IMG/VR virus record: IMGVR_UViG_641522650_000012
Length of the DNA: 13,224 bases
Direction: 5' to 3' (one strand)
Source: a virus
Taxonomy: Duplodnaviria; Heunggongvirae; Uroviricota; Caudoviricetes
Part shown: in pieces, positions 1 through 13,224 of the stretch
Position numbering within the stretch: position 1 is the stretch's first letter
Layout: each line of letters opens with the position of its first letter
The notes under the pieces: generated by a model
The model's database searches: none
What the model saw: only the letters and a program-made list of their open reading frames with translations
What the model was told of the DNA's origin: nothing
Made by a program: the position numbers and the translations under genes

Positions 1-258
1 ATGCAAACCGTTATTTTTGGTCGTTCGGCTTGCCCTTACTGTGTGCGTGCAAAAGATCTGGCTGAGAAATTGAGCAATGAACGCGATGATTTTCAGTATC
101 AGTATGTAGATATTCGTGCGGAAGGGATCACTAAAGAAGATCTACAACAAAAGGCAGGTAAACCCGTAGAAACCGTGCCGCAGATTTTTGTCGATCAGCA
201 ACATATCGGCGGCTATACCGATTTTGCTGCATGGGTGAAAGAAAATCTGGACGCCTGA
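1..258 (+). CDS. grxA: Glutaredoxin 1
   Basis: 85-aa ORF with the CPYC active-site motif (SACPYCVRAK); near-identical to my recollection of E. coli GrxA. Followed by a hairpin terminator. Confidence 0.95.
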   Translation: MQTVIFGRSACPYCVRAKDLAEKLSNERDDFQYQYVDIRAEGITKEDLQQKAGKPVETVPQIFVDQQHIGGYTDFAAWVKENLDA

Positions 259-267
259 TCGTCTGAC

Positions 268-300
268 AAGCCCTCGCGTTGAGGGCTTTACTGATTTTTT
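268..300 (+). terminator. Rho-independent terminator downstream of grxA (overlaps the 3' end of convergent ybjM)
   Basis: Inverted repeat agccctc/gagggct (269-275 / 281-287) with a 5-nt loop, followed by a T-rich run ending in tttttt (295-300). Confidence 0.5.
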
Positions 301-665
301 CTGTGCTGTGGTTTAAACAAACTACTGATAAATAAGAAACACAGTGCCCCCAGCGCACACCAGAACACCGCGCTTAGTAACCATGCCAGCTCTTGCCAGA
401 ATGAGCGCGTCGGTGAAAAAAACAGCCGCATAATGAGCATTGAACAGGGTGCCGCCAGCATTGCGCCAAATAGAGGTTTCAGGACTTCTCTACGCTGTGA
501 AAAGAAACTGGCAACTGCTCCAGGAAGAATGAAAAACAGCAAGCCGATTTCAGGATGCCCGGCAGCCCGAAAAGCGCCTTTCATGTGCGTCGCCAGAAAA
601 AGGCACACCACAATGAAGAGGACAAAACAGCAGATTGCCCCCGCCCAACGTTGTTTATGTTTCAC
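288..665 (-). CDS. ybjM: Small inner-membrane protein (YbjM-like)
   Basis: 125-aa ORF, strongly hydrophobic with several predicted TM segments; size and position between grxA and ybjL match the E. coli K-12 synteny as I remember it. Confidence 0.75.
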   Translation of the reverse strand: MKHKQRWAGAICCFVLFIVVCLFLATHMKGAFRAAGHPEIGLLFFILPGAVASFFSQRREVLKPLFGAMLAAPCSMLIMRLFFSPTRSFWQELAWLLSAVFWCALGALCFLFISSLFKPQHRKNQ

Positions 666-934
666 TCGTTCCTCCTGACACTGCGTCTATCGAACACATT
701 TTTCGCCAGTGTGGCGTTCAGTAAGATAAAGCCGCTTCGCATTCCATGCTAATATAGGCCAACGCAATTCATATAGCCGTTGATACCTAATGTGATTACA
801 CTAGTAAAATATATTGTTACTTTACTATCGTTTAGGTGCGCTGAATGAATCTGCGCCCTGAATTCTGGTAAAAAACATTATCGTAAATTACCATTTCTTT
901 CAACAGCTTACTAGTAAACAAGAAGTTAGCCTCC

Positions 935-2620
935 GTGAATATAAACGTCGCCGAATTGTTAAATGGGAATTACATTCTGTTATTATTTGTGGTCCTCGCG
1001 CTTGGGCTATGTCTCGGAAAGTTACGACTTGGTTCGATCCAACTGGGTAATTCCATTGGCGTTTTAGTCGTATCGCTGTTATTAGGCCAACAACATTTCA
1101 GCATTAACACCGATGCGCTTAATCTTGGCTTTATGCTGTTTATTTTCTGCGTCGGGGTCGAAGCCGGACCGAACTTTTTTTCCATTTTTTTTCGCGATGG
1201 GAAAAATTACCTAATGTTAGCACTGGTGATGGTTGGCAGTGCGCTGGTGATCGCCTTAGGGTTAGGTAAGCTGTTTGGCTGGGATATTGGCCTGACGGCC
1301 GGTATGTTAGCAGGCTCTATGACGTCGACACCGGTTCTGGTCGGTGCTGGCGATACACTGCGTCATTCCGGCATGGAAAGCAGGCAGCTCTCACTGGCAC
1401 TGGATAATCTGAGCCTCGGGTATGCCTTAACCTATTTAATCGGTCTGGTGAGTTTGATTGTTGGTGCGCGTTACTTGCCGAAATTGCAGCATCAGGACTT
1501 ACAGACCAGCGCCCAGCAAATCGCCCGCGAACGTGGCCTGGACACTGATGCCAACCGTAAGGTTTATTTACCGGTGATCCGCGCCTATCGCGTCGGCCCG
1601 GAGCTGGTGGCCTGGACCGACGGCAAAAATCTGCGTGAACTGGGTATTTATCGACAAACCGGCTGCTACATTGAACGTATTCGACGTAACGGGATTCTGG
1701 CAAATCCAGACGGTGATGCCGTGCTACAAATGGGCGATGAAATAGCGTTGGTAGGCTATCCCGACGCCCATGCCCGACTCGATCCCAGCTTCCGTAACGG
1801 TAAAGAAGTTTTCGATCGTGACCTTCTCGACATGCGTATCGTCACTGAAGAAGTGGTCGTTAAAAACCATAACGCTGTAGGTAAACGTCTCGCACAACTG
1901 AAGTTGACCGATCACGGTTGCTTCCTTAACCGCGTCATTCGTAGCCAGATTGAGATGCCGATAGATGACAACGTCGTGCTTAACAAAGGTGACGTTTTAC
2001 AAGTCAGCGGTGATGCCCGTCGCGTAAAAACCATCGCCGATCGCATCGGCTTTATCTCGATTCACAGCCAGGTCACTGACCTGCTGGCATTTTGCGCCTT
2101 CTTTGTTATTGGGCTGATGATCGGGATGATCACCTTCCAGTTCAGCACATTCAGTTTCGGCATGGGGAACGCTGCCGGGTTGTTATTCGCCGGAATTATG
2201 CTGGGCTTTATGCGTGCTAACCACCCGACCTTCGGTTACATTCCGCAAGGTGCATTAAGCATGGTGAAAGAGTTCGGCTTGATGGTGTTTATGGCAGGCG
2301 TTGGTCTGAGCGCCGGTAGCGGTATTAATAACGGCCTGGGCGCGATTGGCGGTCAGATGTTGATTGCCGGATTAATTGTCAGTCTTGTGCCCGTGGTTAT
2401 CTGTTTCTTGTTCGGTGCTTATGTATTGCGAATGAACCGCGCACTGTTGTTCGGCGCAATGATGGGCGCACGCACCTGCGCGCCGGCAATGGAGATCATC
2501 AGTGATACAGCTCGCAGTAACATCCCTGCGCTGGGCTATGCGGGCACCTACGCAATCGCCAACGTCCTGCTGACGCTGGCAGGGACAATCATCGTCATGG
2601 TATGGCCAGGATTAGGATAA
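935..2620 (+). CDS. ybjL: Putative AAE-family transporter YbjL with two central RCK_C/TrkA_C-like domains
   Basis: 561-aa ORF, N-terminus [13 protein letters not shown] matches my recollection of YbjL; hydrophobic N- and C-terminal halves around a soluble middle. Start codon is GTG at 935. Confidence 0.9.
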
Positions 2621-2732
2621 AACTGAAGTTGCCCTGAAAATGAAATTTTTTTGCACAACCGCAGAACTTTTCCGCAGGGCATCAGTCTTAATTAGTGCCA
2701 CTGCTTTTCTTTGATGTCCCCATTTTGTGGAG

Positions 2733-2778
2733 CCCATCAACCCCGCCATTTCGGTTCAAGGTTGATGGGTTTTTTGTT
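2733..2778 (+). terminator. Intrinsic terminator-like hairpin in the ybjL/ogr intergenic region
   Basis: Perfect 10-bp inverted repeat cccatcaacc (2733-2742) / ggttgatggg (2760-2769), followed by tttttt (2770-2775). T-run only on the + strand, so it would stop rightward transcripts. Confidence 0.45.
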
Positions 2779-2855
2779 GTCTGAAATTTATGCCTTTTAA
2801 AATCATGATGTTAGAAGCACTGTTTTTTAACGATGGCGACAAAATGGCGGCAGCG

Positions 2856-3107
2856 TCAAAGAGAGAGCGCCACCTGTCCTGATTTCATTGGATGCGGCTG
2901 AACCGGATTTGACTCTTTTGGCGTTGCAATCGAACGAACAAAAGTTTCATGGGTAACAAAAGTATGGCTGCAGTTAATGTTCTGGCACTGGTTGTAACGC
3001 TCTTTGGTCAATGAAGATACCTGAAAACTGCTGCGAGTATGGGCGGCACTTCCACACAGTGGGCAAATCATCATTTTTCGAGTTCTCCCCATTTTTGCTA
3101 AATTCAC
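2856..3107 (-). CDS. ogr: Ogr/Delta-family zinc-finger late-gene transcriptional activator
   Basis: From the internal Met (start at 3071) the protein reads MICPLCGSAAH...KERYNQCQNINCSHTF, the C-x2-C...C-x4-C pattern of P2 Ogr (~72 aa). The ORF-track start at 3107 is probably an upstream over-extension. Confidence 0.85.
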   Translation of the reverse strand: MNLAKMGRTRKMMICPLCGSAAHTRSSFQVSSLTKERYNQCQNINCSHTFVTHETFVRSIATPKESNPVQPHPMKSGQVALSL

Positions 3108-3164
3108 AATAATGATACCGCATTATTCCATTTTGCAAGCTTAAAAGTTCTCCATTGCGAAGAA

Positions 3165-4265
3165 TCATTCCATTTCGAAATCATCAATCCTCACTTCAAG
3201 CTCCAGACTGGTCGTAAAACCGTTATCCGGGCTGACAGTATGCGTCAGAGTCGTAATGGTCCATTCCGCATCATCTATCGGCTGTTTAAAGCCACTGACC
3301 TTCACAGGCATTTCTGTGTAGAGATCTGCCCGCCCTTCCGCCAGTTGTAGCGAGAATGATGCAACGCCGCGTTGCAGGCGTTCCCACTGCATTTTCGCTG
3401 CCCGTTCGGCGTTGCTCCGGTTGGCATAAGTGCGATTAAGTACCAGCACGTTTTCATCCGTACCCACCAGGTAATCGCCCTGCTTCGCTTCCGGCTCTTT
3501 CTTCTGCTTCTTAGTCCTGCGCTTACGCTTCACCGTGGTGCTTTCTTTCTTCGCGGGTTCGCGGGTATGCAACCAGCTGGCAATGACGCCCGTGTAAGCT
3601 CCGCGATCTGCCAGGGTAAAGCGGTGACTGTCGCCGTCCTTGCGTGTGATAGTGATCACCGGTAGTGGTTTACCGCTGGCGCTTTTACCCTGCCCCTGCC
3701 GGATGAATAACAGATTGCCATTTTTCACCGACGCAATAGCACCGTACTGGCGCGCCAGCCGCATCAAAAAACTGCCGTCACTCTCATTAGTCTGGTCTAT
3801 ATGCTCCACGAGTTTATCCGACAAGTCTTCACCCAATGCCATCTTCAGTTTGTGCCGCGCAGCTATTTCCTTCACCACTTCCCCAACGGTGGTCTTGTGC
3901 CACGACTTTTCACGGCGGGTATTCAGCGTTTCACGAAAATCAGCACTTCGCGCCCGGATAGTCAGGCGATCCGGTGCGCCAGTGTGTTCAATCTCGTCCA
4001 CCGTGAATGCCCCTTTCGGGAAAAGCGGCTGTCCCTTCCAGCCCAGCGCCAGCGTAATGACAGCCCCACGGCGCGGCAGCACGATTTTTCCATCGGCGTC
4101 GTCCAGCTCCAGATCAAGCTGGTCCGCTTCAAAGCCCCGGTTATCCGTCAGCGTCAGCCCCATCAGGCGGTTGTCCAGCACAGTGGTGATATCCCTGCCT
4201 TCAATACTGATGCTGAATGCCGGAGTTTTGTTGCCTTTGTTAAGCAGTTCAGAGCTGAAATTCAC
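3165..4265 (-). CDS. P2 gpD-like tail protein (late control gene D family)
   Basis: 366-aa ORF in the canonical P2 position between U and ogr; basic KRKRRTKKQKK linker region. Start inferred as GTG at 4265, overlapping the U stop codon (GTGA). Confidence 0.8.
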   Translation of the reverse strand: MNFSSELLNKGNKTPAFSISIEGRDITTVLDNRLMGLTLTDNRGFEADQLDLELDDADGKIVLPRRGAVITLALGWKGQPLFPKGAFTVDEIEHTGAPDRLTIRARSADFRETLNTRREKSWHKTTVGEVVKEIAARHKLKMALGEDLSDKLVEHIDQTNESDGSFLMRLARQYGAIASVKNGNLLFIRQGQGKSASGKPLPVITITRKDGDSHRFTLADRGAYTGVIASWLHTREPAKKESTTVKRKRRTKKQKKEPEAKQGDYLVGTDENVLVLNRTYANRSNAERAAKMQWERLQRGVASFSLQLAEGRADLYTEMPVKVSGFKQPIDDAEWTITTLTHTVSPDNGFTTSLELEVRIDDFEME

Positions 4266-4747
4266 GACAGCAGCCCTCCCACCGTTTTACTGATATCGCT
4301 TAAGGCAGATGTTGCCGTTCCCTGCAGATTATTCAGTTGCGCACTGAGATCACCGAACATATCGGACAGGGATTCATCCACGCGTTTTAGCGACAGGGTG
4401 AACTCAATCCGGCGCGGCATACCGTCGCGGAAAAACTCCGTTTTAGTCTGATTCAGTCCCTCAATCACATACATGCCGTAAATCGTGCCGCTGCCTTCAA
4501 TCAGGGGCCATGCTTTTCCCTGTTCTGCCATCTGCTCCAGAGCCAGCAACGACAGCCTGCCGCCCGTTACCTCCGGCATAAGAACACCAGAAAGCGTCAG
4601 CATGTCGTTGTCCGGTCCCAGAAACTGCGTTGACGGGCGTCGGTTTACCCGGCTGTTTGCCGCATGTCGCCAGCTGCGTTGATACTGCAGCTCCTGATAC
4701 GGCACGGTGCGCAGCATAAACACGTACAATCCCAGCACCATCATCAT
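4262..4747 (-). CDS. P2 gpU-like tail protein
   Basis: 161-aa ORF starting MMMVLGLYVFMLRTVPYQ, matching my recollection of gpU; ATGA overlap with the tape-measure stop codon (4744-4747). Confidence 0.85.
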   Translation of the reverse strand: MMMVLGLYVFMLRTVPYQELQYQRSWRHAANSRVNRRPSTQFLGPDNDMLTLSGVLMPEVTGGRLSLLALEQMAEQGKAWPLIEGSGTIYGMYVIEGLNQTKTEFFRDGMPRRIEFTLSLKRVDESLSDMFGDLSAQLNNLQGTATSALSDISKTVGGLLS

Positions 4748-7700
4748 GCGTCGTATCCCCCCTGATCGCTGTAGTTACTCCTGGCTTTTGCCTTCAGCCT
4801 GCGTTCACGTTCATCAAGCTGGCGGGCCACCTCCCGCGCAATATCCTGCGCACTTTGTCCTGGCTGCGTTTGAATGATGATCTGCATCGGTGCCTCAATC
4901 CGTTGAACGGGCGGCACAGTGGCTGCACGACTCACCATCGCTTCACCGCCTTTCGCGGGAAGTGCCAAAGGGTGCAACGGTGGAAGCTCTGCTGGCGTAG
5001 CAGCAACACCCATCATTCCGGCAACAACGGCAGCCAGTGCAGCTGTATTTCTCCGGCTGGTCACATTTGCCGGGCCGTTAACAATTTCCGGCCCGTTTTC
5101 ACCGACGATGCCAAACTGCCCGCGCGGGATATACCCGCCGCTGTCATACATCCCCGCAAAGCCATATCCCCATGACGGAAAACCACCCGATGGCATCATC
5201 ACTTTACCGTCTGCATTCACCGTCGCAGGTTGCTGACGCGTCACGCTTTCCGGCAGTTTCGCCTTTGCGGCCTCTTTACTGACAATGCCAAGTTTCTCCA
5301 GCAACCAGGAAACGCCGGATTTCAGGGAGTCCAGCGGATGCATGACCATATTCAGCCCTTCCGCCAGAGCCTCCCCGAATCGTCGCCCCATTGCCGCTGC
5401 ACTCTGCAGTTCGGCAGAGGTCGACTTAACGGGCGTCAGCAGATCAGTAAACCAGCCCCACAGCGCCTGTACTTTGTCGCCAATCCACTGGAACACAGGC
5501 TTAAGCGGTTCGAACGCGGCACTGACAGGACCTGCCGCCGCTTTGAATCCTTCCACCACGCCACCGAGAAATGCGGTGATGGGCTGCCAGTATTTCCAGA
5601 CAACCAGCGCCACACCCGCCAGTGCAGTAACCACAAGACCTATCAGACTGAGCAGAGCACCTAACAGACCAGAGACGGCATACAGGGCAACGCGCAGCAT
5701 CGCCAGTGGACCGGATGCGAGCATACGCAGCACCGTGCCTGTGGCAGCCAGTCCGCCGCGTAGTACCGCCAGTGGATTCATAAACATCACAGCAACCGCA
5801 CGTAAACCGGATAATCCAGACCGCAAAAGTGCAACCGGCGCACCTGCTACAGTTTTCAGGACATTTCCCGTCAGTGATGCCGTGCGGCGCAAAGACGACA
5901 ACGGCGCAGTAAGTAAACCTGCAGCGTTGCCCGATGAAGCAAGCCCGCGTCGCAGCAGTGCCAGTGGTGCGCCAGCCAGCCAGGACAACGCGTTGCTGGT
6001 TCGGGTTACTGCTGCCGTAACGGAAGGTAACGTTTTGATACCCAGCACAGAGAATCCCAGACGGATGACTGCCAGCGGCCCCAGCACTGCAGCCAGCGCC
6101 ACCGCTAAGGTGCCGAGGCCCACGGTAACGGCAGCTACCACAGCGGCTACTTTCATCAGAGTGCCCGTCAGTTCCGGGTTAGCTTCCACCCAGCGACGCA
6201 ACGCCCCCGTGACGCTTTTCACCGTGTACAGAATATCCATCAGCGGCTGGCGCAGCGTTTCCCCCAGGCTGCTGAAGGTGTTCTGTGCTCCGGTTTTGAC
6301 CAGCAACCACTGAGCAGAAAGTGAATCCTTGTTGATGTCGGATTCTTTCTGCATGGAACCGAGCGCATCATTGCCCGCAGTCAGTTTTAACTGGCGCTGA
6401 AGTTCCGGCAGGTTGTTTGCCAGTTTCGCTGCGTCATCGCCAAACTCTTTACCAAACAACATGGTCATGGCAGACAGGCGCTTATCCTGTGGCAGCGCAT
6501 TCACCTTCTCCAGCACCCGCTGGATAGTTCCCATCGCATCCTTCGTCATCTGCTTTTCAATCACTTCTGGATTGAGTTTCAGCAGATTCATCCCTTCAAA
6601 GAAACTCTTGCTTTGCATGGTGGCAATGGACAATTCACGCACCATCGCGTTTGCTGCACTGGCTGCAACCTCAGGCGCAGCGCCGAGTGTCAGGAAGGTG
6701 GAACCCAGCGCCGCCGCTTTACGATAATCCAGACGGTCAGCCACACCGCCCAGGCGTTGCATGACATCAATGATGTCCGCCCCTTTCGACATGGCGTTAT
6801 CATCCAGATAGTTCAGCGCATCACCGAGCTGCTCAATATTGCGGGTAGGGATTTTGTAGAGCTGGGCGATTTTCCCCAGACTTTCTGACAGTTCATCCGC
6901 TGGCAGTTCAAAGGCTGTTGCCGCCTTTGCCGCCGTGCTGGCGAAGGCCAGCAGGTCACGTTTCTGGTCTTCCCAGCTGTCGTCAGGGTTTGCGACGTTC
7001 ATGCGCGCACCACCTTCAACCAGTGCGGCGAAGTCCACAGCACCGTTTTCCATCGGCAACTGTTCGCTGGCAGCCTTGATGGCACCCTGCATTTCGTAAA
7101 AACGCGCAGTGCGGTTGCCATTATCGTCACGCAGACCATTGACCTGCTTTGCCACACCTTTCATGGCATCTTCCATGCTGGTATAGCTTTTTACTGCCGC
7201 CATCACTGGTGCGCCCATTGCCAGCCCTGCAGCCGTGGTGGTGGCTCCGGCACCTGCAATACGATCCCTTACCTCAAGACGCCTGGCGTAAGCCCCCCGG
7301 GCGGCGTGCATTTTTCGCTGTTGCTCCCCGACACGTCGTAACCTCGCTTCCTGCTCAGAAAGCTGCCTGTTATAACGCATCGTTTCACGGGTAATGCGGG
7401 CCGTCGCACTGGCGCCATCATTAGCTGAAATACCAGCACGATAAAGTTCTGCACGCACAAGCGCCGTCTGCTGCTGCAGCTTTTTCTGGCGTTCTTCCAG
7501 GCGCTGAACAGCCAGCCGTTGACGGCCCAGAGCAACAACCTGACGTTGCGAAGGCGGCCCCATCGCTCCCAGTTCCTGACTGAGCAAATTTGCACGCTGG
7601 CGGGCATAGTTCAGCCTGTCGCCTAATTTCTGATTTTCTGCCTGCAGCTTTCGGAAGCTGTCCAGACTGCTCCCGGCCTGATCAAGCTGCTTTATTGCAT

Positions 7701-7821
7701 CGCGGGATTTTTTGACAGCAGCAGCCAGTTCTCTTGAACTGGCCTGCGCGGATCGAAATGGGCGGGTGAGTTTGTCAACCGCATTAAGAATCACCTGCAG
7801 ACGCAGGTTATTGTCACTCAT
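4744..7821 (-). CDS. Tail tape measure protein (P2 gpT family)
   Basis: 1025-aa ORF, coiled-coil-like N-terminal third, central hydrophobic/Gly-Ala-rich repeat tract, position between E/E' and U. Its start overlaps the E' stop codon. Confidence 0.9.
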   Translation of the reverse strand: MSDNNLRLQVILNAVDKLTRPFRSAQASSRELAAAVKKSRDAIKQLDQAGSSLDSFRKLQAENQKLGDRLNYARQRANLLSQELGAMGPPSQRQVVALGRQRLAVQRLEERQKKLQQQTALVRAELYRAGISANDGASATARITRETMRYNRQLSEQEARLRRVGEQQRKMHAARGAYARRLEVRDRIAGAGATTTAAGLAMGAPVMAAVKSYTSMEDAMKGVAKQVNGLRDDNGNRTARFYEMQGAIKAASEQLPMENGAVDFAALVEGGARMNVANPDDSWEDQKRDLLAFASTAAKAATAFELPADELSESLGKIAQLYKIPTRNIEQLGDALNYLDDNAMSKGADIIDVMQRLGGVADRLDYRKAAALGSTFLTLGAAPEVAASAANAMVRELSIATMQSKSFFEGMNLLKLNPEVIEKQMTKDAMGTIQRVLEKVNALPQDKRLSAMTMLFGKEFGDDAAKLANNLPELQRQLKLTAGNDALGSMQKESDINKDSLSAQWLLVKTGAQNTFSSLGETLRQPLMDILYTVKSVTGALRRWVEANPELTGTLMKVAAVVAAVTVGLGTLAVALAAVLGPLAVIRLGFSVLGIKTLPSVTAAVTRTSNALSWLAGAPLALLRRGLASSGNAAGLLTAPLSSLRRTASLTGNVLKTVAGAPVALLRSGLSGLRAVAVMFMNPLAVLRGGLAATGTVLRMLASGPLAMLRVALYAVSGLLGALLSLIGLVVTALAGVALVVWKYWQPITAFLGGVVEGFKAAAGPVSAAFEPLKPVFQWIGDKVQALWGWFTDLLTPVKSTSAELQSAAAMGRRFGEALAEGLNMVMHPLDSLKSGVSWLLEKLGIVSKEAAKAKLPESVTRQQPATVNADGKVMMPSGGFPSWGYGFAGMYDSGGYIPRGQFGIVGENGPEIVNGPANVTSRRNTAALAAVVAGMMGVAATPAELPPLHPLALPAKGGEAMVSRAATVPPVQRIEAPMQIIIQTQPGQSAQDIAREVARQLDERERRLKAKARSNYSDQGGYDA
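5686..5967 (-). repeat. Five imperfect ~63-bp (21-aa) in-frame tandem repeats inside the tape measure gene
   Basis: Protein motif P-L-A-x-L-R-x-G-L recurs at about aa 619, 640, 661, 682 and 705 of the tape measure protein. Confidence 0.6.
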
Positions 7822-8250
7822 GGCTGGCCCCGCTTCTCTGAATCGCTTTATCCCGCCATTCCAGCACTTCGGTCAGCGGCATAACGTCAGTAACGGATGG
7901 CGGCCAGTGAAAGATGGTGGCGATATCAGCCACCAGATCGTCAACCGTCAGGCTGTCGGTAAACCGGCAAGCACCGACTTCTTCAACAAAAAAGTGACAA
8001 CCTCAACCGACATGGCAGTGAGATCTGCCGGGTCCATCTCTGCAATTTCCTGTGCAGTCAGTGCCGGACTGGAGATGCGGGGGATCACGGTCATCATCGC
8101 GTTCACATCCATATCCATAATGGCCTGCAGGCGTGTGCCGCGCAGCGCACCGGACTGCGGTTTACGCAACACAATTTCGGTAATTTCTGTTTTACCGCGC
8201 ATGATGGGAGTATCCAGTTGAATGGTCTTTTCAGTCTGCTTATCGCTCAT
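7814..8250 (-). CDS. gpE+E' tail assembly chaperone made by programmed -1 ribosomal frameshift
   Basis: After a -1 slip at T-TTT-TTG the reading frame stays open for 58 codons to a TGA at 7816-7814, overlapping the T start codon (ATGAGTGA). Predicted fusion is about 146 aa, as for P2 E+E' and analogous to lambda G/GT. Confidence 0.6.
7948..8250 (-). CDS. P2 gpE-like tail assembly chaperone (zero-frame product)
   Basis: 100-aa ORF between FII and T with an SD-like AGGA upstream; contains the TTTTTTG slippery heptamer near its 3' end. Confidence 0.8.
   Translation of the reverse strand: MSDKQTEKTIQLDTPIMRGKTEITEIVLRKPQSGALRGTRLQAIMDMDVNAMMTVIPRISSPALTAQEIAEMDPADLTAMSVEVVTFLLKKSVLAGLPTA
7987..7993 (-). 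promoter_or_regulatory. Slippery heptamer T-TTT-TTG for the E/E' -1 frameshift
   Basis: The + strand reads caaaaaa at 7987-7993; on the coding strand this is the TTT-TTG codon pair of gpE preceded by T. Confidence 0.6.
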
Positions 8251-8304
8251 TTTGTTGTCCTGTAAATTAGGTTCTGGCGCGGCATTCCGCGCCGTTCAGA
8301 TACA

Positions 8305-8820
8305 TCAGAGGCCGAGGGCGTTGCGGTGCGCTTCCATCAGGTCCACACCGTCCACAATTTCCACCATGTTGATCAGGTCCACTTCATAGAGCACCTCACC
8401 ATTGATGGTCAGCTTCGCGTAGCTGTTGGTACTGGTCACTTTGGTAGTGTTGCTTTCGCCCGTCTTCCACTCGCCGGAATCTACTTCTTTGTGACGTCCA
8501 CGCACCACAAGCTCCACGGCCTGCACTTCCCCGGTATCATCACGCTGAATAGAGCCGGTAAAGCGCAGCTGGATGCCATCCACCGTGGCTTTGCCCATCT
8601 GCTTAAACAGCAGCAGTTCAGTACCACCAATGGAAAATTCTGTATCCAGTGCACTGTCATCCAGTCCCAGATCCACATCCACCGCTCCGGGCATACCGCC
8701 GCCGCGATACTTCTCATATTTGCGGGTGAATTTCGGCAGCGTCAGCGACTCAACGATCCCCTGCCAGTTGTTCCCGTCGTTAAACAGGTTCAGGTGTTTT
8801 AATTTGCGTGGTAAAGCCAT
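8305..8820 (-). CDS. Tail tube protein (P2 gpFII family)
   Basis: 171-aa ORF immediately downstream of the sheath gene; size and position match P2 FII. Confidence 0.85.
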   Translation of the reverse strand: MALPRKLKHLNLFNDGNNWQGIVESLTLPKFTRKYEKYRGGGMPGAVDVDLGLDDSALDTEFSIGGTELLLFKQMGKATVDGIQLRFTGSIQRDDTGEVQAVELVVRGRHKEVDSGEWKTGESNTTKVTSTNSYAKLTINGEVLYEVDLINMVEIVDGVDLMEAHRNALGL

Positions 8821-8829
8821 GTTGTCCCC

Positions 8830-10002
8830 TTACGCGCTGACCTGGCTGGAGAAATTCACCAGGTACTGATCGGTGATGCGCTGACGCAGCATCAGGTTTT
8901 CAAGTGGCGGCACTGGCGTGTAGTCGTAATCGATGGTGAGTTTCCCGGCTTTCAGCGTGTCTTTATCGTTCACCGACTCGTCCAGCCAGCAATCACCACC
9001 AATGAGATAGCCCTGACTGACCAGGCTACGCATTTTGGCGCGGATACCTTCGATAATGTCGCGGGCCAGCGACGGGTTCAGCGGTTTGTCCACCGCCCAC
9101 ATGTGCGCTTCTGCCATCGTGTCCATCAGCACCTGCGCCGTGCGGGTGTAGTTTTCGAAGGCAAAGAGCGGATCATCGCTCAGACAGCGGGAACCCCAGA
9201 AGCGGAAACCGTCTTTGCGGATAAGCGTGGTGATATCGTTCTGGTTAAGCAGACCTGCATCGGTTGCCGGGTCCTGCAGATCCCAGAACACATCAGCAGA
9301 AATTCCGGTGACACCGTTCACGCCCACGTTGGACAGGCTTTTGTGCCATCCGGTCTGCTCATCAATTTTAGCGCGCAGACCGAGCGCACGGGCGGTGGCA
9401 TAAGCCGTTGCTTCGGCATTCAGCACCGTGTCCCAGCCAGTAAAGTCGGGCCAGATCAGCATTCCTTCACGCTGACTGAAGTTTTCACGGTAAGTGATTG
9501 CTTCCTGCACCGTCTTGCAACCATACGCTGACAGGTAAGCAAATCCACGCAGGCTTTGCGCCACGCTCAGCAACTCAGTAGCTACCGCCTTCGTGTCGTG
9601 ACCTGGCACGCCGAGAATGCGCGGTTTAACGCCGAGCTGTGACTGGGCAGATAACAGGGCTTTCATACCTGTTTTTTTACCCTCGGCGGTCACTGCGCCA
9701 ATGATATTGGTTGTGGTTTCTTCTTCCGTTTCACCCTGCGGCACACGCACAACAACGGTCACGGGTTTTGCCTGGTCAGCGATGGCATCCAGCGAACGGG
9801 CCAGCGTGCCAGACTCACCCGCTTTACCGCTGGCGGTCAGCACATCAGTGATCAGCACAGGTTTATTAAGAGGAAACATTTTTGCATCGGCATCATCGCC
9901 CGTGCAGACCATACCCACGATGGCGGTGCTCACCGTGGTAATGGATCGGGTGCCTTCGTTGACTTCAACAACGCGCACCCCGTGGTGGTAATCCTGAGCC
10001 AT
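8830..10002 (-). CDS. Contractile tail sheath protein (P2 gpFI family)
   Basis: 390-aa ORF starting [14 protein letters not shown] with an AGGAGG SD 9 nt upstream; first gene of the FI-FII-E-T-U-D cluster. Confidence 0.9.
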
Positions 10003-10064
10003 AGTGGCGAACCTCCTGATTGGATTAGGCTTCGCCCTATGTTGAAGTGGGTAATGACTCCAAC

Positions 10065-10442
10065 TTATTGATAGTGTTTTATGTTCAGATAATGCCCGAT
10101 GACTTTGTCATGCAGCTCCACCGATTTTGAGAACGACAGCGACTTCCGTCCCAGCCGTGCCAGGTGCTGCCTCAGATTCAGGTTATGCCGCTCAATTCGC
10201 TGCGTATATCGCTTGCTGATTACGTGCAGCTTTCCCTTCAGGCGGGATTCATACAGTGGCCAGCCATCCGTCATCCATATCACCACGTCAAAGGGTGACA
10301 GCAAGCTCATAAGACGCCCCTGCGTCGCCATAGTGCGTTCACCGAATACGTGCGCAACAACCGTCTTCCGGAGCCTGTCATACGCGTAAAACAGCCAGCG
10401 CTGGCGCGATTTAGCCCCGACGTATCCCCACTGTTCGTCCAT
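10065..10442 (-). CDS. insB: IS1 InsB reading frame (expressed as InsAB' transposase by -1 frameshift)
   Basis: ORF-track fragment [22 protein letters not shown]... is the canonical InsB frame. The slippery motif AAAAAAC lies at 10505-10511 (+ strand gtttttt), so the real frame extends upstream of this Met. Confidence 0.85.
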
Positions 10443-10486
10443 TTCCGCGCAGACGATGACGTCACTGCCCGGCTGTATGCGCGAGG

Positions 10487-10762
10487 TTACCGACTGCGGC
10501 CTGAGTTTTTTAAGTGACGTAAAATCGTGTTGAGGCTAACGCCCATAATGCGTGCAGTTGCCCGGCATCCAACGCCATTCATGGCCATATCAATAATTTT
10601 CTGGTGCGTACCGGGTTGAGAAGCGGTGTAAGTGAACTGCAGTTGCCATGTTTTACGGCAGTGAGAGCAGAGATAGCGCTGATGTCCGGCAGTGCTTTTG
10701 CCGTTACGCACCACCCCGTCAGTAGCTGAACAGGAGGGACAGCTGATAGAAACAGAAGCCAC
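10487..10762 (-). CDS. insA: IS1 InsA (transposition inhibitor / N-terminal part of InsAB')
   Basis: 91-aa [27 protein letters not shown]..., the canonical IS1 InsA with its zinc-finger. Confidence 0.9.
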
Positions 10763-11110
10763 TGGAGCACCTCAAAAACACCATCATACACTAAATCAGT
10801 AAGTTGGCAGCATCACCGCTCTTTGTTATTAAGCCCACTAACTACCTATGCTAAAAATTATCCTTGTTCTGGGAAAAAGGGAGGTGTCTCTCACTGTACC
10901 TCCGATGGAAAATTTGTTTGCAATGATGGAACTATTAGTAAATTCAAAAAAATCTGTACTAAAAACTCACGATAACTTTTGCTTTTATATCTGCGTCTAA
11001 AATAAAAATGAGCCGCAGGTTAACCGCAAAAGTTACATGCTCACATAGCAAAAAGAATAGCCAACTTCATTATGGCTTCAGTGAGATGTATGGTCGTAGG
11101 ATTTCATACA

Positions 11111-11139
11111 TTGACACTGGTTATACATACAGTGAAAAT
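11111..11139 (+). promoter_or_regulatory. Candidate sigma70 promoter upstream of the integrase, now separated from it by IS4
   Basis: Perfect -35 TTGACA at 11111-11116, 17-bp spacer, -10-like GAAAAT at 11134-11139; predicted start site about 11146, just before the IS4 insertion point. Confidence 0.3.
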
Positions 11140-11142
11140 ACT

Positions 11143-11153
11143 CTCTACTGGAG
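11143..11153. repeat. IS4 target-site duplication, left copy (CTCTACTGGAG)
   Basis: 11-bp sequence immediately flanking the IS4 end, identical to 12580-12590. Confidence 0.9.
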
Positions 11154-12579
11154 TAATGCCAGTCAGTTAAGCAACTGACTGGCTCTTTTTCGGGGCTGTG
11201 GGGTATTTCCAGGGCCTCTCCTTTACCACTCTCGGGAAGGCCCTTCCCCTTCTCGTCGGTAATTTCACAAGTTGTCCCATACTTGCAAGATCGCGCATCA
11301 GCTCCGGTATACGTCCCGGTGAAGCGCCCTGCAATGTCATCAGCATTCTCATCACCATTCCGCATGATTCTGAGAAACTCAGTTGATTCGGCCAGTAACC
11401 TTTCAGATGTTCCGCCATTTTAATCATCTGATATCTCACCAGATTATAAGCCAGTAAGACACCCCACAGCTCTTGCTCCACAAGCTCCGGCTTTTTACTT
11501 CTCAGCGTCAGCCTGCTCAGTTGCATCGTCTGTTTTATCTCCCTGTATCCCAGTTCGATTTCCCAGCGATGACTGTACAGATCCGCCATTTCTCCTCCGG
11601 GGAAGCGCATGGCGTCCGTCATCGACGTCAGCAGATGGCAGACTTTTCCTTTGCGCGTCACGGTCAGCAGGCGGGCTGTCACTTCATTTCCCAGTCCCGG
11701 CCACTTTTTTCGTGCCTGCGGGCTGGTTTTCAGCTTCACCAGATGATCGCCTTTACCCAGTTTTCTGAGCTCTTCATATTGCGCTCCCTTTCTGAGAGGT
11801 ATCATCCAGTGGCGGTGTTCTCCCGCCAGGCTCCAGGCATTTAACAGTCCCAGTGAGTAATAACCTTTATCCATTAACGTCAGAGTGTTATCGCCGGTTT
11901 GTTCTATAAGTTGCTCAGCAAGCTCATTTTCGCTGTTCTTCATCGTGCCGAAGGCTGCAGCCGTCAGCAGATGGCTGGTCAGTTCCATCTGGCAGACCAT
12001 TTTGACCTGCGGGTAGAGCGCCGGGTTCCCGGCATGTGTCTGGCGGGGGAAGGCTGCATCGTTCTCTGGTGTATCCGGTGTGCGCCAGAACACACCATCG
12101 ATGGCCAGCAGGGTCAGGCCGCACCAGTGCGGATGCGGCGTGGCGTTATGCCAGAGCTGCGCTGTTTTCGTGAACACGCGGCGGACAGCCTCACTTCCCA
12201 GGCGCTGGCGGGCCTGAATAACGGCACTGGGGGCAACGAAGGGGCGATTGCCCGGCAGCATGATGTCCAGGCGATTCACAATCTGGTGAAGAGGTTCTTT
12301 ACGCTCAAGCGCCATGCCAACAATACACCAGACCATCATTTCGAGGGGAAGACGGCGCTTGCGTAGCGTTACAGTACCTGATTCGGCAAGGCAACGAGAG
12401 ATGAGTTCGGGGTCGAGGTAATCCCCCAGAGAAGTCAGTGGGTTACGCAGAGAATCGTAACGGGATACCAGATCAAGAGCCTGTCCAATGTGCATAAAAA
12501 AATCCGGAAACAAGTGAGCGTTTCCGGATTCTTACACAGCCACTGGATCGGTCAACTGATCCTTAACTGATCGGCATTA
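11154..12579 (-). mobile_element. IS4 insertion sequence, complete 1426 bp
   Basis: Ends taatgccagtcagttaag... (11154-) and ...cttaactgatcggcatta (-12579); single transposase ORF; exactly the 1426 bp I remember for IS4; perfect 11-bp direct repeats flank it. Confidence 0.95.
11167..12513 (-). CDS. insG: IS4 transposase (DDE family)
   Basis: ORF-track protein matches my recollection of E. coli IS4 transposase from [16 protein letters not shown]...; the likely true start is that Met (12495), giving 442 aa; the track's 448 aa includes a 6-aa upstream extension. Confidence 0.9.
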
Positions 12580-12590
12580 CTCTACTGGAG
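12580..12590. repeat. IS4 target-site duplication, right copy (CTCTACTGGAG)
   Basis: Identical to 11143-11153; contains the GGAG of the integrase Shine-Dalgarno sequence. Confidence 0.9.
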
Positions 12591-12600
12591 GGCATTTTTT

Positions 12601-13224
12601 ATGGCAGTACGAAAACTCACCACTGGGAAATGGCTTTGCGAATGTTACCCCGCCGGACGAAGTGGGCGTCGTGTGCGTAAACAATTCGCCACCAAAGGCG
12701 AAGCACTGGCTTTTGAGCGCCACACGATGGAAGAAACCGAAGCAAAGCCCTGGCTGGGTGAATCAGTGAATCGTCGAACACTGAAAGACGTGGTTGAGCT
12801 ATGGTTCAAACTACATGGTAAATCTCTGACAGCTGGGCAGCATGTCTATGACAAATTGCTGTTGATGGTTGACGCTCTGGGCAATCCTCTTGCAACCGAT
12901 CTCACCTCTAAAATGTTTGCCCACTATCGAGATAAACACCTGACAGGCGAGATCTACTTCAGCGAGAAATGGAAGAAAGGAGCAAGCCCGGTCACCATTA
13001 ACCTGGAGCAAAGCTATCTAAGTAGTGTTTTTAGCGAACTATCCCGTCTGGGCGAATGGTCGTATCCGAACCCACTGGAGAACATGCGAAAATTCACCAT
13101 CGCAGAAAAAGAGATGGCATGGCTTACCCATGAGCAGATTGTTGAATTGCTGGCTGATTGCAAACGTCAGGACCCAATTCTGGCACTGGTAGTTAAGATA
13201 TGCTTAAGCACAGGCGCACGCTAG
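12601..13224 (+). CDS. int: Tyrosine integrase of the P2/186 family (3'-truncated by the window end)
   Basis: N-terminus MAVRKLTTGKWLCECYPAGRSGRRVRKQFATKGEALAFE and the segment WLTHEQIVELLADC...VVKICLSTGAR resemble my recollection of P2 and 186 Int; GGAGG SD 9 nt upstream of the ATG. The catalytic C-terminal domain lies outside the window. Confidence 0.85.
   Translation: MAVRKLTTGKWLCECYPAGRSGRRVRKQFATKGEALAFERHTMEETEAKPWLGESVNRRTLKDVVELWFKLHGKSLTAGQHVYDKLLLMVDALGNPLATDLTSKMFAHYRDKHLTGEIYFSEKWKKGASPVTINLEQSYLSSVFSELSRLGEWSYPNPLENMRKFTIAEKEMAWLTHEQIVELLADCKRQDPILALVVKICLSTGAR

Follow-up and report, generated by a model that had tools for sequence, protein, structure and literature searches.

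The presence of an IS4 element directly in front of the integrase gene (int) of a prophage raises the question whether the insertion silenced a working integrase and thereby locked the prophage in its host chromosome, as the original prediction for this locus proposed. The window analysed here is a stretch of 13,224 nucleotides, deposited as IMG/VR virus record IMGVR_UViG_641522650_000012. Our analyses indicate that, very probably, a resident IS4 of the Shigella type moved recently into the int leader of a 186/P2-like prophage remnant, an event that was probably neutral, as we assume. The insertion of IS4 probably had no functional consequence because a nonsense mutation in int (W208*) and an IS1-linked loss of 25.5 kb came first. 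The features at and around the insertion point are the following:

11111-11139, plus strand: putative int promoter, consisting of TTGACA (11111-11116), a 17-bp spacer and GAAAAT (11134-11139), with 10 of 12 positions matching the sigma-70 consensus
11115-11134: LexA-box-like palindrome CACTGGTTATACATACAGTG in the promoter spacer, with 15 of 20 positions matching the consensus
11143-11153: left copy of the target-site duplication, CTCTACTGGAG, 11 bp, abutting IS4
11154-12579, minus strand: intact IS4 of 1426 bp, recognized by its duplications, terminal repeats and near-identity to reference IS4
11158-11190, plus strand (the int strand): terminator-like hairpin inside the IS4 end, with an 11-bp perfect stem and a 4-nt loop, followed by TCTTTTTC
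11167-12495, minus strand: uninterrupted IS4 transposase coding sequence of 442 aa plus stop, with Pfam matches to Nterm_IS4 (3e-33) and DDE_Tnp_1 (8e-32)
12528-12555, minus strand: promoter-like site for the transposase, TTGACC, 16-bp spacer, AAGAAT, from the promoter scan
12580-12590: right copy of the target-site duplication, CTCTACTGGAG, 11 bp, abutting IS4
12587-12591, plus strand: Shine-Dalgarno sequence of int, GGAGG, 9 nt before the ATG, within and just beyond the right repeat
12601-13224, plus strand: int pseudogene of 207 codons, followed by TAG (13222-13224) at the position of Trp208 in intact homologues

Length, terminal repeats, duplication, the DDE/YREK reading frame and near-identity to known copies all identify the inserted element as IS4 itself, of the IS4 subgroup of the IS4 family. 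It shares its length, its ends and a 442-aa DDE/YREK transposase with IS4 of E. coli K-12 (insG; ISfinder IS4), the type element of the IS4 family, from which it differs by its location, by four amino acid changes and by carrying a transposase variant named under Shigella flexneri. The terminal inverted repeats, TAATGCCAGTCAGTTAAG and TAATGCCGATCAGTTAAG, are imperfect and match at 16 of 18 bases. Compared to standard E. coli IS4, as found at ravA-kup, at lacY and in E. coli EC0880B, 6 of the 1426 bases are different (99.6% identity to the ravA-kup copy), and these six substitutions cause the four amino acid differences from the standard protein. The YREK residues of the transposase are Y307/R310/E314/K321; the Y(2)R(3)E(6)K motif defines the transposases of the IS4 family, the members of which generate target duplications of about one helix turn (PMC2266710). 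The duplication in the window has 11 bp, within a range of 11-14 bp over all IS4 sites that we collected, and the chance of an 11-bp match at two fixed positions is about 4^-11. Scans with Rfam and for tRNA genes gave no match in or adjoining IS4. Much of the original prediction was borne out by the coordinates: IS4 is intact between perfect duplications (1426 bp, an open frame of 442 aa, 11 of 11 repeat bases), 21 bp separate it from the int ATG (last IS4 base 12579, ATG at 12601), with the Shine-Dalgarno sequence at the right duplicate, it stands between the promoter-like site and the Shine-Dalgarno sequence and ATG, and its transposase gene, running from 12495 to 11167, is on the opposite strand. 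Two lesions had been overlooked, namely the premature TAG that ends the int reading frame at the edge of the window and, separated from IS4 by 336 bp of int-upstream DNA on its left, an IS1 element with a large deletion. The prophage and its boundary with the host genes comprise these features:

935-2620: host genes grxA, ybjM and ybjL, at the left of the window
2700-2778, plus strand: rybB sRNA gene (Rfam RF00110, 105 bits), the 3' end of which overlaps the prophage attachment core
2765-2791: copy of the prophage attachment (att) core, ATGGGTTTTTTGTTGTCTGAAATTTAT, a 14-bp exact repeat with extended similarity to position 11128 of locus L003
2856-10002, minus strand: surviving prophage arm with ogr, D, U, tape measure, E/E', tail tube and tail sheath genes (UPEC-245U annotation, Pfam)
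10050-10817, minus strand: IS1 of 768 bp with InsA/InsB' Pfam matches, lacking a 9-bp target duplication
10823-10975, plus strand: 5'-truncated remnant of a small open reading frame of the YdcA family, which intact prophages carry between the genes CI and int

The prophage is a 186/P2-like remnant integrated at the rybB 3' end, in the ybjL-rcdA interval, and its att core overlaps the rybB terminator; the second copy of the core is located downstream of int, outside the window. Positions 1-10049 of the window are 99.9% identical to E. coli UPEC-245U. In common with 186/P2-like prophages (Peduoviridae), the locus has the order ogr-D-U-T-E-FII-FI ... cII, cox-like, CI, small ORF, int, att, in which int follows CI on the same strand, but unlike them the remnant has a truncated int and retains no more than about 8.8 kb of phage DNA. 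Its int module matches Escherichia phage vB_EcoM-813R9 and Klebsiella phage 4LV2017 at about 97% identity, which is not the case for 186 itself. The exact match to the 207-aa int product, WP_000290945.1, is named under Shigella boydii, and the exact transposase protein is named 'IS4 ORF [Shigella flexneri]' and also appears under Enterobacteriaceae. The Shigella names of these two exact proteins indicate that the chromosome is of the Shigella type, and the whole arrangement was absent from every complete E. coli genome in RefSeq (5426 complete E. coli genomes). In related genomes, the same prophage has been struck by other IS elements, and in sister genomes mdfA is split nearby.

The sequences flanking IS1, GTTGAAGTG and GCTCTTTGT, differ from each other and map to positions 10049 and 35517 of locus L016, and relative to UPEC-245U the IS1-linked deletion comprises 25,467 bp. 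It removed the tail fibre, baseplate, lysis, head and replication genes, cII, CI and the start of the YdcA-family reading frame, and with them the Cox-like excisionase (phrog_575). In phage 186, int is located downstream of cI and was used as a reporter of leftward transcription (PMC7708051); Apl is reportedly required for prophage excision, going by the title of a 1993 study by Dodd and colleagues that the same paper cites. By analogy, the remnant would already have been without a source of upstream transcription, an excisionase and a recombinase. Two matches (H31 and H32) that appeared to represent E. coli genomes with the IS1 deletion were rejected as artefacts of joining pieces, as they have IS1 near grxA and an undeleted prophage.

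Comparison of int with the intact 350-aa gene of UPEC-245U revealed three base differences, which cause the exchanges D57N and R113H and the change of TGG to TAG at codon 208. Where intact homologues continue with ...STGAR-W-REAV..., the window has ...STGAR-TAG, leaving 207 of 350 residues. The stump retains the core-binding domain Int_N (PF24624, 6.9e-31), whereas the catalytic domain PF00589 (Phage_integrase) was matched in the intact 350-aa homologue only and is missing from the stump, which thus does not combine the H-x-x-R box and the tyrosine nucleophile of a tyrosine recombinase in one polypeptide. The part of int downstream of the stop survives untranslated in sister genomes. Across lineages, Trp208 is replaced by TAG in most and by TGA in one: nine of ten further loci that we examined have TAG at codon 208 and the tenth has TGA, with CI retained and with different IS lesions. 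The occurrence of the same TAG in nine of ten loci with differing IS lesions indicates that the stop is old. The product of the stump variant is indexed in 186 blocks of the collection.

Removal of the element together with one repeat restores a sequence that exists in nature, and exactly this empty site was found in two near-identical sister genomes, GCA_002968185.1 (L002) and GCA_002950275.1 / CP026795.1 (L003), which share 99.92% and 99.94% identity with the window, respectively. Positions 1160-11153 and 12580-13224 of the window map on these sisters with an overlap of 11 bases, corresponding to a single copy of CTCTACTGGAG. More broadly, the joined empty-site sequence is covered to at least 80% in one piece in 594 complete E. 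coli genomes, with up to 99.5% identity. Both the recent arrival of IS4 and the natural empty site had been anticipated by the original prediction. The sisters were retrieved by exact lookup of the 207-aa int product and therefore carry the stop codon, and these IS4-free genomes have the same IS1 beside the sheath gene and the same 25.5-kb deletion. The order of events was thus the stop codon, then the IS1 deletion and finally IS4, so that the element was immobile before IS4 arrived. A contig from SRR1811689 likewise passes directly from the end of IS1 to int, without IS4. The insertion itself is present in Logan contigs from SRR9432728 and SRR9432729, which start 27 nt inside the IS4 end. A literature search on the accessions of the sisters gave no match. 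The intact reading frame and ends of IS4, together with the absence of the insertion from the sisters, are indirect evidence that this copy was probably active recently.

Among 5426 complete E. coli genomes, one other strain carries IS4 at this site. In E. coli EC0880B (NZ_OX460335.1), IS4 is inserted in the same leader, in the same orientation and with the same left edge of the duplication, which has 12 bp in this strain (CTCCACTGGAGG). The EC0880B copy is standard E. coli IS4 and differs from the window copy by six bases. Unlike the window, EC0880B has an intact prophage with an intact int of 350 aa, and the annotated prophage upstream of it contains CI, Cox-position and CII genes. These differences and the IS4-free sisters demonstrate two independent insertions at the same place. 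A single ancestral insertion that was spread to both genomes by recombination or phage transfer, without any hot spot, would be in keeping with the same position and orientation and a right junction that is identical except for one T/C base. We consider such a shared origin very unlikely, because the duplications differ in length (11 and 12 bp), because the two IS4 copies differ at six bases, with each copy matching the pool of its own host (the Shigella-type protein or standard E. coli IS4), and because the sisters have the private IS1 deletion of the window but lack IS4. Exact-pattern scans for the right IS4/int junction, GATCGGCATTACTCYACTGGAGGGCATTTTTTATGGC, found no further occurrence in IMG/VR, in JGI metagenomes or in the GTDB species representatives, a set that is poorly suited for events at the strain level.

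For the preference of IS4 for particular targets, we built a pattern from six independent IS4 sites (ravA-kup, lacY, PSS-07, 14EC007, RMDEC465 and EC0880B), all of which have duplications of 12-14 bp. In most of these sites, exactly 19 bp with a partly palindromic centre separate an A-run from a T-run, and the int leader fits this pattern as AAAAT-ACTCTCTACTGGAGGGC-ATTTTTT (that is, AAAAT ACT CTCTACTGGAG GGC ATTTTTT). In the 11.8 kb of the window without IS4, the int leader is the only site of the form AAAA-N19-TTTT, of which 0.41 per 13 kb would be expected by chance. A literature search did not retrieve an explicit IS4 target consensus; Mayaux and colleagues reportedly described one in 1984 as AAA-N20-TTT. 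Judging from the six sites, IS4 may have landed in the int leader through this target preference for an A-run, 19 bp with a palindromic centre and a T-run.

Between 10800 and 12700, no plus-strand site other than the candidate int promoter resembles a promoter, but the scanned region contained two promoter-like sites where shuffled sequence led to an expectation of 2.0, so that the consensus match alone is not significant and the credibility of the promoter rests on its context. In EC0880B, vB_EcoM-813R9, 4LV2017 and the 72%-identical ESSI2_ev129, the homology to the int module starts 5-7 bp before the -35 hexamer, and all four have kept the -35 and -10 hexamers, the latter as TAAAAT in most relatives. 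This conservation at the module boundary is what suggests that the site may be active as int promoter. The LexA-box-like site is the best CTG-N10-CAG match in the window, with 15 of 20 positions identical to TACTGTATATATATACAGTA compared to 15-17 of 20 in relatives, and it is kept in the int promoter down to 72% int identity. This prophage type has a LexA-like box in front of a small ORF and a DinI-like gene, comparable to p95 of phage 186 (PMC7708051). Searching the literature for LexA-regulated int promoters in P2/186-like phages, we found only the known LexA-controlled p95-tum of 186. The leader can form a hairpin that holds the Shine-Dalgarno sequence and is followed by U6; it is weakened in the lineage of the window and has been kept in vB_EcoM-813R9 with a wholly different stem sequence.

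Taken together, these features allow the tentative reading, which we regard as possible but rather doubtful, that the leader of this widespread 186-like int module is a recurrent hot spot for IS4 and that int is transcribed from its own LexA-controlled promoter, the transcripts of which escape the leader hairpin. A hairpin that contains the Shine-Dalgarno sequence and is flanked by an A-run and a U/T-run would mimic an IS4 target. Transcription from the putative promoter is predicted to start inside the 5' arm of the hairpin, and these transcripts could therefore escape it, whereas the hairpin would terminate transcripts that read through from CI or mask them translationally.

It might be argued that the insertion was selected, for instance because it stops the SOS-driven synthesis of a truncated, DNA-binding Int fragment or because it removes a LexA-titrating site. 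The LexA-box-like site in the promoter, the presence of other IS elements in the int upstream region of other lineages and the interruption of Trp208 by both TAG and TGA are compatible with this idea. However, nothing points to harm from the stump, most stump-bearing genomes have no IS4, and multiple IS insertions are expected from neutral decay in Shigella, all of which makes selection a very improbable explanation. A neutral transposition into an element in decay remains our preferred interpretation.

Transcriptional uncoupling of int is likely as a local effect of this transposition, as far as can be judged from the arrangement of motifs. IS4 splits the putative int promoter from the Shine-Dalgarno sequence and the ATG, and transcripts starting at this promoter are predicted to end at the hairpin with its T-run inside IS4. 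The fold of 11158-11183 has -24.2 kcal/mol (z = -4.5) and was matched by no shuffled sequence, and its orientation is such that it faces transcripts from the putative int promoter, a few tens of bases downstream of it; termination inside IS4 is thus suggested by the hairpin together with the T-run. In the far end of IS4, nothing appears to read outward to int, as the promoter-like site found there is on the minus strand and would serve the transposase. The position of IS4 between promoter-like site and Shine-Dalgarno sequence, the terminator-like hairpin facing the promoter and the occurrence of this arrangement before an intact int in EC0880B could be taken to mean that a functional integrase was silenced by IS4, which would thereby have locked the prophage in the chromosome. 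For the window, hardly any credence can be given to this central claim of the original prediction, because int was already a stump of 207 codons with Int_N as its only domain, its catalytic domain being lost by the stop at codon 208, and because the IS4-free sisters share this stop and the 25.5-kb deletion that includes the Cox-like excisionase. Of the predicted silencing, the uncoupling is plausible in view of the hairpin and the absence of an outward promoter, but the gene that was uncoupled had been dead before IS4 arrived. Locking by IS4 would fit better to EC0880B than to the window. The opposite effect, activation or maintenance of int stump expression by an outward or hybrid promoter in the IS4 end, is scarcely credible even though some IS elements create hybrid promoters and the IS4 end is only 21 bp away from the int ATG, since the scan detected no plus-strand site with at least 9 of 12 matches in 11200-12600, inspection of 12540-12600 by hand gave no usable -35/-10 pair, and any fragment produced would be non-catalytic.

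Grounded prophages, like deletions next to IS1 and polar insertions of IS elements, are textbook phenomena. The locus is a typical case of the IS-driven decay of prophages and genes in Shigella, which likewise involves IS1 with an adjacent deletion, IS4 insertion and nonsense mutation, and from which it does not differ in substance; the phenomenon is already known in kind. The locus should accordingly be annotated as a grounded 186/P2-like remnant with three stacked lesions, the nonsense mutation in int, the IS1-linked deletion and IS4, and not as an IS4-silenced prophage. Beyond annotation its significance is small, but it provides a clean example of how decay events can be ordered with the help of sister genomes, and a second independent insertion is added to the small set of documented IS4 targets. 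The LexA-like box, the conserved leader hairpin and the replacement of Trp208 by two different stop codons are of mild interest where the prophage is intact. If the int leader were indeed a recurrent hot spot, IS4 could repeatedly ground prophages in strains whose int is intact, such as EC0880B.

The putative int promoter, its leader and the surrounding prophage remnant, together with related sequences, contain the following features:

Window 11115-11134: LexA-box-like CTG-N10-CAG palindrome within the spacer of the putative int promoter, matching the consensus at 15/20 positions.
L016 (the undeleted relative UPEC-245U) 35814 and 29341, and L021 (a further relative) 1511: LexA-box-like sites, scored against the same consensus.
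Window 11135-11153 joined to 12591-12600, and the comparison sequences L001, L019 and L021: hairpin of the int leader at the empty site, assessed by folding energy.
Window 10050-10817: IS1 without target duplication, marking a deletion of the prophage interior.

In the relatives, the LexA-like box reaches scores of up to 17/20, in an int module that is 72% identical. The intact prophage has a second such box, also scoring 17/20; a small ORF and a DinI-like gene lie downstream of it, so placed that its position corresponds to the one occupied by p95-tum in phage 186. The -10 hexamer of the putative int promoter (window 11134) reads GAAAAT in the window as well as in the IS4-free sister assemblies, whereas most relatives have TAAAAT at this position. 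GAAAAT in place of TAAAAT would be a weakening change, which is consistent with decay.

The leader of int is predicted to form a hairpin with the Shine-Dalgarno sequence in its 3' arm and U6 after it, and the start of the putative int promoter is predicted to lie inside the 5' arm. The folding energy is -14.9 kcal/mol for the version shared by EC0880B, an E. coli with an independent IS4 at this site, and a Klebsiella phage, -13.3 kcal/mol for vB_EcoM-813R9, in which the stem sequence is unrelated, and only -6.5 kcal/mol in the window lineage. A further IS4 copy was found in E. coli PSS-07 (L009, 332-1757) inside the perfect terminator-like hairpin AAAAGGCTCCCACTAGGGGAGCCTTTTTT, approximately 50 bp downstream of the gene for an unrelated tyrosine recombinase; this insertion site matches the IS4 target pattern of the int leader.

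The codon for Trp208 of int is TAG in the window (13222-13224) and in most related genomes, whereas one lineage, whose upstream module differs, has TGA (L025, 3501-4124), both versions yielding the same 207-aa stump. This distribution implies either two independent nonsense mutations at a single codon or recombination around it. At the IS1, 25,467 bp of prophage interior are missing relative to UPEC-245U. Other genomes sharing the int stump (L023 and L027) carry an IS3-family element between CI and int (1903-3131 in both), and cII and neighbouring genes are broken there by more IS1 and IS3-family copies. In the sister assemblies L002 and L003, mdfA consists of two ORFs (14212-15340) and is another pseudogene close to the prophage locus.

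The prophage end is adjoined by rybB, encoding the RybB sRNA, and the att core overlaps the rybB terminator (both within window 2700-2791). The integration site of this phage family is therefore the 3' end of rybB, a gene for an sRNA.
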